The notes under the pieces were generated by a model that had not been told where the DNA came from, did no database searches, and saw only the letters and a program-made list of their open reading frames with translations. A program made the position numbers and the translations under genes. This document shows positions 25,801-31,000 of a DNA stretch of 64,000 nt, in pieces. Position 1 is the first letter of the stretch. Each line of letters starts with the position of its first letter. Location of the stretch: assembly GCA_044892525.1 (NCBI GenBank), contig CM097885.1:24368001-24432000 (forward strand). The letters run 5' to 3'. Origin of the DNA: Schmidtea polychroa. Taxonomy: Eukaryota.

Positions 25801-27689
25801 TACTTGGTAGCAGGTAACTGGTTGTTAGTATCTAGTTGTTTGAGAGTCAGTTAGTACGTGGTATCTAGTTGTAGGTACTTGGTATCTAGTTGTTAGTATC
25901 TAGTTGGAGGTACTTGGTTGTTTGAGAGTTATTTAGTACGTGGTATCTAGTTGTAGGTACTTAGTAGTTGGTTAATAATGCTTAGTAACTGGTTGTTGTT
26001 GGTTGTGAGTAGTTGATATCAGGTAACTAGTTGTTAGTAACTAGTTGTAGGTATCTAGTTGTTAAAACATGTTCGTAAGTTACTGGTTGTTGGTACTAAG
26101 TTGTTGGTTTGTTGTTGAATTATTATTAAAATTTGTCTTTGAAAAATATTTCATAAAAATTTTCATTAAAAATTATCTTAAAAATTTCCATCTAAAATTA
26201 ACTAAAAAAATTATTTCATAAAAATTTCCATTAAAAATTACTTAAAAAATTATTCCATAAAAATTTTCATTAAAAAATTTCAATTCTCAAACACTTTCAA
26301 CTTTTTGTTAATAAATTTTAAAATCTTACTTTAATTTACTTATTACATTACTTTAATTTACTTATTTAAAAATTATTACTTTAATTTACTTATTTAAAAT
26401 TTTTTTACCATTGATTACTTAATTTAAAAATTTGGACCTTAATTAACTTTAATTTAATTTTTAGAACCTTAATTTACTTTAATTTAAAAATTTGGACCAT
26501 TATTTACTGTAATTTAATTTTTAGAACCTTAATTTACTTTAATTGAAAAATTTGGACCATTATTTACTTTAATTGAAAGATTTGAACCATAATTTACTTA
26601 TTTAGACCATAATTTACTTTAATTTAATTTTTTAGAACCATTATTTACTGTAATTGAAAAATTTGGACCATAATTACTTTAATTTAATTTTTAGACCCAT
26701 AATTTACTGTAATTTAATTTTTGGGACCATTATTTACTGTAATTTAATTTTTTAGAACCATTATTTACTGTAATTTAATTTTTTAGAACCATAATTTACT
26801 GTAATTTAATTTTTAGAACCATAATTTACTGTAATTTAATTTTTAGGACCATAATTTACTTTAATTTAATTTTTTGGACCATAATTTACTGTAATTTAAA
26901 AATTTGGACCATAATTTACTTTAATTTAATTTTTAGAACCATTATTTACTGTAATTTAATTTTTTAGAACCATTATTTACTGTAATTGAAAAATTTGGAC
27001 CATTATTTACTTTAATTGAAAAATTTACCACGTTTTTAGTGTAGACCACCTATTTCTCAGGACCATGGAGACTCACCTCACTATAGTCTGAAAAATCCTT
27101 GGCTCTTTTAGTGTAGACCAGCTTTTTGTATTGAAAATATCCTGAGACCTTAAATTACCATGCTTTTTTAGTGTAGACCAGCTTTTTGTATTGAAAATAT
27201 CCTGAGACCTTAAATTACCACGTTTTTTTAGTGTAGACCACCTATTTCTCAGGACCAAGGAGACTCACCTCACTATAGTCTGAAAAATCCTTGGCTTTTT
27301 TAGTGGTAGTCGGATTTTTGTATTGAAAATCCCAGGACCATCGAGACCCCCTCACTATAGTCTGAAAATTCCATGCTTTTTTAGTGAGACCGCCTTTTTG
27401 TATTGAAAAAAATTTTTTTGTATTGAAAATCCCAGGACCATCGAGACCCCCTCACTATAGTGTGAAAATTCCATGCTTTTTTAGTGGTAGTCGGATTTTT
27501 GTATTGAAAAAATTTTATTTGTATTGAAAATCCCAGGACCATCGAGACCCCCTCGCTATAGTGTGGAACAATTGCGTAATAAAAGGTTGCAACAAAAAAA
27601 AATCGTGCAACAAAAAAAATCGTGCAACAGGGGGGGGTTACCCCCCCCCCCCCCCCCCAATTGTTGCAGCGGGCTCCTAACTACCTACT
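22851..27689 (-). repeat. Right arm of the foldback element
   Basis: Inverted copy of the left arm, differing by indels of repeat units. Confidence 0.9.
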
Positions 27690-28026
27690 TAATTGTAATA
27701 GTAATAATTATAATAGTAATTGTACTAGTAGTAGTAATAATAATAATAATAATAATAATAATAATAATAATAATAATAATAATAATAATAATAATAATAA
27801 TAATAATAATAATAATAATAATAATAATAATAATAATAATAATAATAATAATAGTACCAATAATAATAATAATAACTTAGCATTATTTAGCATTAACTAA
27901 TTATTTTATAGTTGATAATATTATAGACAAATTTTAAATGAAAGATTAAATTACATTTATTATTATTATTATTATTAAATAAATAATACATTTTCATTCA
28001 ATAAATAATTATTTAAATTTTATTAG

Positions 28027-31000
28027 GAAAATTTTATCCTAAATATTGTAATTCGTCTATGGGTCATGACAATAAATGCCACAAAAATATGAAGAAATAT
28101 TATCGCCAACCTTTTAATGGCATCAACTTTTTTATTTGCCCCATATGCAAAACTTCCAAGAGTGTAAGGTATAAGGAATTTTTTAGTCAACATTCTCAGC
28201 ACTTAAATTCTTTCAAAACAAATAAAAAAGAACTGTTTAAAATAATAAATAAGAATAACATTGAAATTGTAAATATTTTAAATAATAACACAAAAAAGAA
28301 ATCTAATAAAAGACCTGCTGAACATAGGGTGTCTAAAATTAAAAATAAAATTATAAAAACTGAAGTTATTGAGATCCGTGACGACGAAATTATTAAAAAT
28401 GAAGTCATTCTACTCAGTGATGACGAATGTAATAATATTACATATACTATAAATCATGATATTATAAATGATAATATTGATACTATAAATGCTATAAATG
28501 AAAATATAAATAATGATAATACTATAAATACTATAAATCAAATAGGTGGATCATCTTTAGCGATTGAGCCGATAATAGAATCAAATTTAAATGGCGCCAT
28601 TCGAACTATTCGATTTAATATTGCCGATTCACAATTAATTAAAATTATAATAACGGATAAAATCACTGAAAAGTTAACATCTGAAATAAATAACATGGGT
28701 AGCGTCAAAATTCAATTCGCTATTCTTATAAGATTTGAAAAAGATGGGGAAATCCGTGACAACTACTTTTCAAATAACGCCGAGATCTTTTCCCATAATT
28801 TTTTAATTGAGGGAGTTAATAAGTTAAACGAAAAAATTGAAAAGTTTACCTATTTAGGTAGTGGCTGGAGAGTAATTAATATCTTAGAGATCGATTTCAT
28901 TCTGACTAAATTTGCTCCTATTTGTCGCCTATCTGGTCATAGTTACATTCGTACACCTGCAGATTTGAAATCTAAAGGAGCAATTATAAATGTTAAAAAT
29001 AAGGATCATAAGTGTTTCCTTTATAGTATTCTCGCGCTCTTGAAAAAAGATGAAATAGGTAGCCACCCTGAAAGAGTTTCAAAATATGAAAATCTTTTAA
29101 ATATTCTTAATTACAATGAAGTCACGGATTGTCCGATGAAATTGTGTAATATACCTAAATTCGAAAAGAAAAATTTAGACTTAAATCTTGCCATAAATGT
29201 TCTGGCTTATACCCCTACTGTGATAGTTGATGATGATCAGGTTCCTAATGACTATGTTTTTAAACACCCCCACTTAAGTATAATTCACAGATCAACGGTT
29301 ACTGGCGGTACTCCAATTTATTTATTACTCTTGGAAAATAAGGATAATTATCATTACACCGCAGTGACCAACATTACACGTTTAATGAACTGCCATCGTA
29401 ATAATGACTGTAGTATTCAAATAAGATGCAAATGGTGCCCACATTGTCTTAACGGTTTTCGATTAGACAATGCTTTCACTAAACATGTGGCCCTATGCAG
29501 TAAAAATCAAACGGGTACAACCCTTTACACTTTACCCGAAAATAAATATTTAGAGTTTCAAAATCATTCAAAGAGAATCACCCCACCCTTTGTTATTTAT
29601 GCCGATTTTGAATCGGTTTTACCTAAAGATGTTAAACATCATCAAATACATTTACCTATTTCAGCAGGTTTTTTTATTAATAAATAATCTTAACAATAGA
29701 AAATCGTATTACTAGTTTTATGGTCTTGATTGTATACCTCAATTTCTTAAAAAAGTAGAGGAAATTGCTGTCACAATTGTCCTACCTTATTATGAGCTTG
29801 AAGGGAAAAAACGGTTAGGACCTATGACTTTTGCTGAGGAACGACAATTCAAATCTTGTAGGAACTGCTATCTTTGTAAGAAGGTTTTATCCATTGCTGT
29901 TCGAGATCATGACCATTTTACTGGTAATTATCTCGGTGCAGCCTGTAGGAAATGTAATATGGCTCGCAGAATTTATAAACAGTTGCCGATTGTATTTCAT
30001 AATTTACGAGGATACGACTTACACCATATTTTAAAATATGGTCTCAATGGCTTTCCTTCTTGGAATTTGAATATAATACCCACAAGCGCAGAGAAATTTA
30101 TCTCGATGATTGTTCACATTAAAAAATTAGCTGTTCGTTTTATCGACAGCATGCAATTTGTTAATTGTTCTTTGGCTAAGGCTGTAAAAACTCTAACTGA
30201 TCTTCCTTTGACTTCGTCGGTTTTTGATAGGCTAATAATAGATGCTAAAGCCATATTTCCTTATGATTATGCGACTGATTTGTATGTACTTGAAACTACT
30301 TATGAATTGCCTCCTATTTGGTCTGGTGTTACTGAAGATGAGTATACTAAAGCTCAACTTATTTGGACTCAACAACGTTGTACTAAATTGGCTGACTATA
30401 TGTTAACTTATCAAAAATTGGATGTATTCCTCCTTGCGGACTATTTCCAACAATTCCGTGCCAAGGCCATCGCATACAATGGTCTAGAACCTCTAAACTT
30501 TTATGGTATTCCGGGTATGTCATGGGCATCAGCGCTTATGACATTAACTGAGCCTATAGAACTTTTACAGGACATGGAAATGTTCAATTTTTACGAAGGA
30601 GGAATACGTGGTGGGTTAACATTTGTTAACAAACATTACGTTGCTGCTTCTGATAATACAGAATTATTATATATTGATATAAATAATCTGTATGGTTGGG
30701 CTCTTAGCCAAAATCTTCCTTTTGCTGATTTCACTTGGGTGTATTATGGATTGAATGATGTATTGCTTGAGTGCATGAATGCTGACATTGAAATCCTTCC
30801 CTATGGTTATACCATAGAAGTGGATATAGATATTCCAGAAATTTTTCATGATTTTTTAAATGACTTTCCTCTTGCTCCTGAGAAAATGTGCCCGCCTGGT
30901 TCGAAAGTTGAGAAGTTGATGCTCACGCATTGGCCAAAGAAGAACCATGTTCTTCATTGGAGGCTTCTCAAGCTTTATTTGTTTCTTGGTGCCAAAGTTG

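Follow-up and report, generated by a model that had tools for sequence, protein, structure and literature searches.

Does a gene-less mobile element aim at the polymerase gene of the virus-like elements around it, or do two of its copies merely happen to lie in similar places? The question is raised by a stretch of 64,000 nucleotides of the Schmidtea polychroa genome (GenBank assembly GCA_044892525.1, contig CM097885.1, positions 24,368,001 to 24,432,000 of the forward strand; hereafter the window, numbered from its first letter), in which two members of a foldback family end shortly upstream of the main coding exon of pPolB, the polymerase gene of Maverick/Polinton elements. The original prediction was that two foldback copies, in two different Mavericks and with different junction sequences, had inserted independently about 300-340 bp upstream of a pPolB exon, and that such a satellite targets and disables its helpers. 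Our analysis of these two junctions indicates that aim at helper elements is less likely than separate insertions into non-coding Maverick DNA, and we lean towards a reading in which the positional match between the two foldback members is probably a coincidence. The features on which the argument depends are the following.

15767..27689, unstranded: foldback copy 1 (FB1), 11.9 kb, with ends AGTAGGTAGTTAGG and a 6-bp duplication.

27690..28026, plus strand: 3′ portion of what is likely the final pPolB leader intron in Maverick B, 9% GC, with an (AAT)n run.

28027..31974, plus strand: main exon of B pPolB, starting after TTATTAG.

56893..60817, minus strand: main exon of pPolB in element C, with its acceptor after TATCAG.

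60818..61130, minus strand: DNA between the C acceptor and the second foldback arm, 96 bp at 10% GC followed by 217 bp at 26% GC.

61131..64000, plus strand: one arm of a second foldback-family element (FB2), with left flank CGCGTT, cut off by the window edge.

The predicted spacing is borne out at both loci. FB1 terminates at 27689, leaving 337 bases before the B acceptor at 28027 (coordinate difference 338), and FB2 starts at 61131, leaving 313 bases to the C acceptor at 60817 (coordinate difference 314). The two acceptors are equivalent: the open reading frame (ORF) of B finds its match in C beginning at 60818 (63 aa at 60%, E 6e-20), and the first 190 nt of the two main exons align with a score above that of 500/500 shuffles. 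B and C pPolB have 71.2% nucleotide identity; the Pfam model DNA_pol_B_2 matches pieces of C pPolB and none of B pPolB, which is 75-77% identical to those pieces. A protein search with the front half of B pPolB gave four matches at 27-36%, and no kin locus of pPolB or of a capsid-like ORF was confirmed in viral contigs.

FB1 and FB2 are likely separate insertions, as had been proposed. Their inner unique blocks are 99.0% and 97.1% alike (85% in an AT block), the hexamers at the junctions differ (TAATTG for FB1, CGCGTT for FB2), and the 60 nt beside them are unrelated, 171/500 and 418/500 shuffles scoring equally well. A single insertion inherited by B and C is unlikely because the inner arms are 97-99% alike as compared with 71% for pPolB, and because the junction flanks are unrelated. 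An ancestral insertion in a common ancestor of B and C would account for the equivalent acceptor at a similar distance, and for the marginal likeness of the two introns near the acceptor (21-28/500 shuffles score equally well). Against it stand the arm and junction comparisons, together with one contig in which a C form without the insertion seems to exist (see below), and we consider it exceedingly improbable.

FB1 is complete. Its arms (about 15767-20812 and 22851-27689, ~5.0 and 4.8 kb) enclose a spacer of about 2 kb, and its inverted ends are identical over 30 bases and start with AG, AGTAGGTAGTTAG being the pattern taken for ends of the family; the TAATTG duplication stands at 15761-15766 and 27690-27695. 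It is devoid of genes: none of 13 B proteins gave a tblastn match in FB1, and its longest ATG-initiated ORF measures 86 aa. The region upstream of FB1 holds the predicted start of the polymerase gene.

15274-15319, 15371-15433 and 15490-15564, with a weaker 15611-15640, plus strand: candidate leader micro-exons of B pPolB, predicted from AG/GT borders.

Because these three or four candidates (15274-15640) lie upstream of FB1, the element, a clean insertion, most likely occupies the final intron of the B pPolB leader, whichever micro-exon comes last.

FB2 would be an insertion of the same kind. Within the window it amounts to 2870 bases of a single arm, which follow FB1 throughout; the far end and any target duplication fall past the window edge. 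Its terminal ~140 bases (61131-61270) are 69% alike to those of FB1 (15767-15900), with G/C runs in both, and such differing terminal subtypes on near-identical inner arms hint at end swapping between foldback copies. As for its host, only pPolB and short flanks of element C are present in the window, where neither a terminal inverted repeat (TIR) nor any other gene of C was found; what is missing may be situated past 64000. The 61131 arm was also considered as C's own end; this was rejected, as the arm points away from C pPolB. The picture of two foldback copies in two Mavericks is upheld in part.

The idea that both copies entered one functional region stands for B and is plausible for C, where the adjoining 217 bases may be, or contain, a separate repeat. 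This stretch begins with CCGTATTT on the plus strand, a start that resembles the ends of an element at 43924-44489 and that looks similar to pogo-type ends; no second copy of 60914-61130 exists in the window. The element at 43924-44489 is itself small, non-coding and similar to a MITE (a miniature transposable element with inverted repeats), with inverted ends of ~30 bp beginning CCGTATTTTTCGGACC. The stretch 60914-61130 may be a C-family intron that contains the end of an old repeat. Since the minus strand has a donor-like GT at 61120, FB2 may instead have hit a leader micro-exon.

On the other side of C pPolB lies a short motif with relatives inside FB1.

56281..56381, unstranded: ~100-bp motif downstream of C pPolB, 79-88% identical to three FB1 sites (E 2e-19 to 3e-10).

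The FB1 sites (19244-19315, 22588-22683 and 24193-24264) have unrelated flanks, and the left-arm copy has the same orientation as that of C. The DNA left of the C motif has no second copy in the window, and the motif folds no better than its shuffles (z 0.56 and 0.76). The motif could be what is left of a C-like end, and so a clue to the family from which the foldback descends, or else a small repeat of its own. Because it recurs three times in FB1, C appears to be a better candidate for foldback kin than B; B is not demonstrated as a foldback helper, since its ends match those of the foldbacks for 5 bases only (AGTAG).

The arm at 61131 could also be no comparable insertion, which would leave a single case: it might be the left TIR, a long one, of a Maverick with genes, the edge of a deletion or rearrangement, or part of a small repeat interrupting C. 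This is favoured by the far end of FB2 lying beyond the window, by the lack of a TIR or other genes for C, by the 69% likeness of the terminal ~140 bp, and by the recurrence of the C-downstream motif 3.5 kb inside the FB1 arm in the same orientation, as a C-like Maverick terminating in foldback-type sequence would be expected to show. Contigs of four of 23 runs (X1, X2, X5 and X8) were compared with 60200-61440, and all figures refer to the matches listed; the assembly may derive from X1, and X8 is only guessed to be RNA. In each of the four runs the C exon and the sequence reaching 61130 are multi-copy, except for three empty bins of X8, whose lack of cover at 60788-60913 does not speak for splicing. 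In favour of a non-comparable arm, three high-depth contigs cease to fit at 60936 with 13-48 letters remaining, and depth jumps at 60914-60997 in X5 (52,796 and 82,227 vs 2,093-16,911 before) and X8. On the contrary, no such jump is present in X1 or X2, and the similar contig depths on either side of 60936 in X2 (~1020 and 939) and X5 (2149 and 2633) fit one family. A single X1 contig matches as far as 61131 and then runs on for 12 non-foldback letters, as fits an insertion; because it passes 61131 without arm letters, an uninserted C form probably exists. Moreover, FB2 is FB1-like for all its 2870 visible bases, which exceeds the 100-1500 bp given for Polinton TIRs in the portion of Jeong et al. 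used here, where target duplications measure 5-8 bp (10.1101/2023.08.22.554363). Taken together, we regard a non-comparable arm as rather unlikely.

Maverick B comprises the following features.

1578..33600, unstranded: Maverick/Polinton B, host of FB1, delimited by TIRs and a 6-bp duplication and carrying a Maverick gene set.

6192..9648, plus strand: hAT transposon nested in B, within a (TA)n run (Dimer_Tnp_hAT, 5e-11).

10954..12010, plus strand: B integrase (Pfam rve, 9.5e-9).

The TIRs of B (1578-3191 and 32057-33600, ~1.6 kb) align with 1537 matches and 3 mismatches, and its 6-bp target duplication AATATT (1572-1577 and 33601-33606) lies within the 5-8 bp of Mavericks. Pfam matches in B comprise a packaging ATPase (Pox_A32), the rve integrase, a protease (Peptidase_C5), a TBP-like protein and a RING protein. 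Its pPolB main exon is broken around 29680-29715, where a stop and a shift of frame occur, and departs from C after ~31850; in its capsid-like genes the frame shifts near 12495 and 13740 and meets a stop near 13491. In C pPolB the reading frame shifts near 60190, 59030 and 58280, and a stop interrupts it near 58192. Since both hosts carry such other breaks, which may predate or postdate the insertions, the foldback insertions are not needed to explain inactivity, and an intronic insertion, as FB1 likely is, need not kill the host copy. With, in addition, the slight likeness between B and foldback ends, and with the two junctions lacking the shared target sequence expected of a helper-targeting satellite, the two junctions do not uphold the proposed targeting and disabling of helpers.

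Despite several broken genes and 15 kb of passengers, the TIRs of B differ by only 0.2%, and its transposition may have taken place in trans, with B forming a composite of 32 kb. The FB1 arms differ more than the TIRs do (21/3134 vs 3/1540, Fisher p 0.03, excluding the repeat-rich outer arm at 93%), as would be the case if B was dead and carried FB1 when it made its last move as a passenger. Alternatively, the FB1 arms may already have been divergent at insertion, or some of the breaks in B may be assembly errors.

How surprising is the positional match? Our chance figures are rough and derive from one window, uncorrected for multiple windows, with a base of 49,207 non-foldback bases, ~47% of them derived from Mavericks (23014/49207; the tally includes 506-1571, assumed to belong to element A), and a 350-base zone before each of the two acceptors. 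Under uniform insertion with a pre-specified zone, the chance is 1.4% per insertion and 2e-4 for both. Calculated post hoc, as the chance that both fall in Maverick DNA (0.47 squared) and in the same intron (458/16,593), it is 0.6%, and it reaches 4% when insertions are limited to the non-coding interior (458/2,450). The last leader intron makes up ~19% of the non-coding interior of B, so that two intron hits are not rare if the elements lean to non-coding DNA. We therefore consider the positional coincidence notable, not compelling.

A true hotspot would explain the match differently. The foldback family would prefer a site just downstream of the Maverick pPolB promoter, guided by open chromatin or by a replication compartment common with Maverick genomes, and would profit by hitch-hiking in an intron or by damping its helper. 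In its favour, at both of the visible 5′ pPolB ends a foldback terminates 313-337 bases away from the acceptor, the pre-specified uniform chance is low, and the excess divergence of the FB1 arms would fit an entry of FB1 before the last move of B. A precedent for aiming at a virus-like element is provided by Ngaro tyrosine-recombinase retrotransposons in Cafeteria EMALE virophages, of which type 1 lies inside EMALEs in 91% of cases in the part of the source drawn on here (Hackl et al. 2021, PMC8547959). Against a hotspot, the case consists of two insertions judged post hoc, no target sequence is common to both sites, the B ends diverge from the foldback ends after 5 bases, both hosts are broken elsewhere, and the arm divergence may predate insertion. 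Furthermore, one X5 contig has an FB2-type end at depth 19.7, with 102/198 letters aligned and ~96 further letters unlike the C flank, while C-family contigs near that end have a depth of ~2090; the unbranched run and the depth suggest another foldback terminus in a low-copy flank, one case among the matches listed. We judge a hotspot to be fairly unlikely, and its helper-damping variant very improbable. The full scenario, in which a giant gene-less foldback satellite seeks out the spliced pPolB leader of different Maverick families, hides in an intron, is carried by the composite to new sites and damps its helper through a 5-kb hairpin transcript, strikes us as doubtful, more so than a hotspot as such.

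Several observations nevertheless count against the reading that we favour. The post hoc chance is still only ~0.6-4% for one window, and all three Maverick-type insertions in the window (B, FB1 and FB2) lie within ~1.1 kb of a pPolB gene. The FB2 site, at 26% GC with a CGCG core, lacks the AT-richness of the B and FB1 sites at 14-20% GC. The C-terminus of the B integrase has a weak chromo-like match (E 0.002, 18.5 bits, under the Pfam cut-off of 25.1), and the single low-copy flank is an anecdote, one case among the matches listed.

Separate insertions into non-coding Maverick DNA could arise as follows. Because FB1 combines a 6-bp duplication with inverted ends starting with AG, a Maverick integrase, with the polymerase, would be expected to mobilise these gene-less elements in trans. 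A general lean to AT-rich, non-coding or promoter-near DNA, or a better survival of composites inserted there, would do the rest, and the scarcity of non-coding Maverick DNA would raise the odds of matching positions. Such a lean without aim would suffice because the hAT transposon, which is no Maverick satellite, also lies in non-coding DNA near gene starts: it is 76 bp upstream of the ATG of the TBP-like gene (6116) and 87 bp upstream of that of the ATPase (9735), in the divergent promoter between them, and its transposase frame is open (886 aa). Both passengers nested in B, hAT and FB1, are in the non-coding interior, which represents 2450/16593 core bases. The chromo-like tail of the integrase might guide insertion to silenced repeat chromatin. 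Once in place, inverted arms of 5 kb would be predicted to make a pre-mRNA partly double-stranded, and packaging would be predicted to suffer from the extra foldback length.

Three pPolB genes, those of elements A, B and C, are present in the window, and nesting is a local rule: B lies near A pPolB, and hAT and FB1 lie inside B.

2..505, plus strand: element A, the third pPolB, of which the 3′ end only is present, 52% at the amino-acid level to B.

The B insertion site is 1.07 kb downstream of the A pPolB stop, and no second copy of 506-1571 occurs within the window. Among the remaining B genes, the TBP-like protein measures 170 aa (5604-6116, minus strand; Pfam TBP 7e-17), and the integrase gene has a likely 40-bp GT-AG intron at 11342-11381, directly 5′ of the GKEFYN motif. 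The capsid-like ORFs at 13691-14590, 11941-12564 and 12465-13007 have no Pfam match; gene order and general likeness are all that suggests their naming as major and minor capsid genes. The RING gene terminates at its 3′ end inside the TIR (3125-3191 and 32057-32120), so that its last 20 codons are duplicated at the opposite end. Elsewhere, a 312-aa open frame at 38856-39794 (minus strand) looks leucine-rich-repeat-like by eye and is probably a host gene exon; decayed frames at 51450-52660, adjoined by a long (ATT)n run, resemble, judged by eye, a Penelope-type reverse transcriptase with a GIY-YIG end. No tRNA or Rfam match was found in the window. Beyond it, a 17-mer of the foldback terminus occurs at 48 metagenome loci and one viral locus, none of which extends past a chance-level match of 20-50 bases to the window, and a 27-mer of the foldback arm has no occurrence in viral or prokaryote contigs.

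If the foldbacks are a matter of ordinary nesting, they add a further instance in which mobile DNA accumulates where integrated virus-like elements are non-coding, and the shared position matters little. If a hotspot were true, it would demonstrate that a Maverick integrase chooses its targets and that polintoviruses have a satellite by which they are regulated or ridden; helper damping, if true, would mean that polintoviruses in an animal genome have a parasite of their own, comparable to a virophage.

We know of no aimed insertion into a helper polymerase gene among non-autonomous Polintons or MITE/foldback-type passengers, and we found no report in the open-access literature of aimed insertion at pPolB or of a Polinton-regulating or hitch-hiking satellite. 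Non-autonomous Polintons were reportedly described by Kapitonov and Jurka in 2006; these and MITE/foldback-type passengers are said to be gene-less and to keep the ends and duplication length of the autonomous family, as the foldbacks would. B itself resembles adintovirus-like Polintons/Mavericks, as characterized in the portions considered here of Jeong et al. (10.1101/2023.08.22.554363) and Starrett et al. (PMC8502044), in its TIRs and 6-bp duplication and in having pPolB, an rve integrase, an ATPase, a protease and capsid-like ORFs, and the foldback resembles them in its AG-starting ends and 6-bp duplication. Unlike them, the foldback is gene-less with 5-kb arms, and B pPolB apparently begins in spliced micro-exons, as predicted here. 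A polinton with an inserted mobile element, in which a polB-less composite was then amplified, appears in the consulted part of the Pannagram study (10.1101/2025.02.07.637071); it is likewise a mobile element inside a polinton, but the cargo is a LINE, and positional preference is not claimed in that part of the text. The closest parallel is that of the Ngaros in EMALEs, in which 9/20 sites are intergenic although such DNA represents 5-10% of the element; in the sections at hand, the authors ascribe this lean to selection or low GC, find insertion-bearing hosts not more fragmented, and raise chromodomain guidance for EMALE integrases (PMC8547959). In both systems a mobile element is nested, with a non-coding lean, in an integrated virus-like element bearing pPolB and an rve integrase; as far as that source goes, the Ngaros encode their own proteins and were counted in many copies, whereas the foldback is gene-less, Maverick-ended and represented by two.

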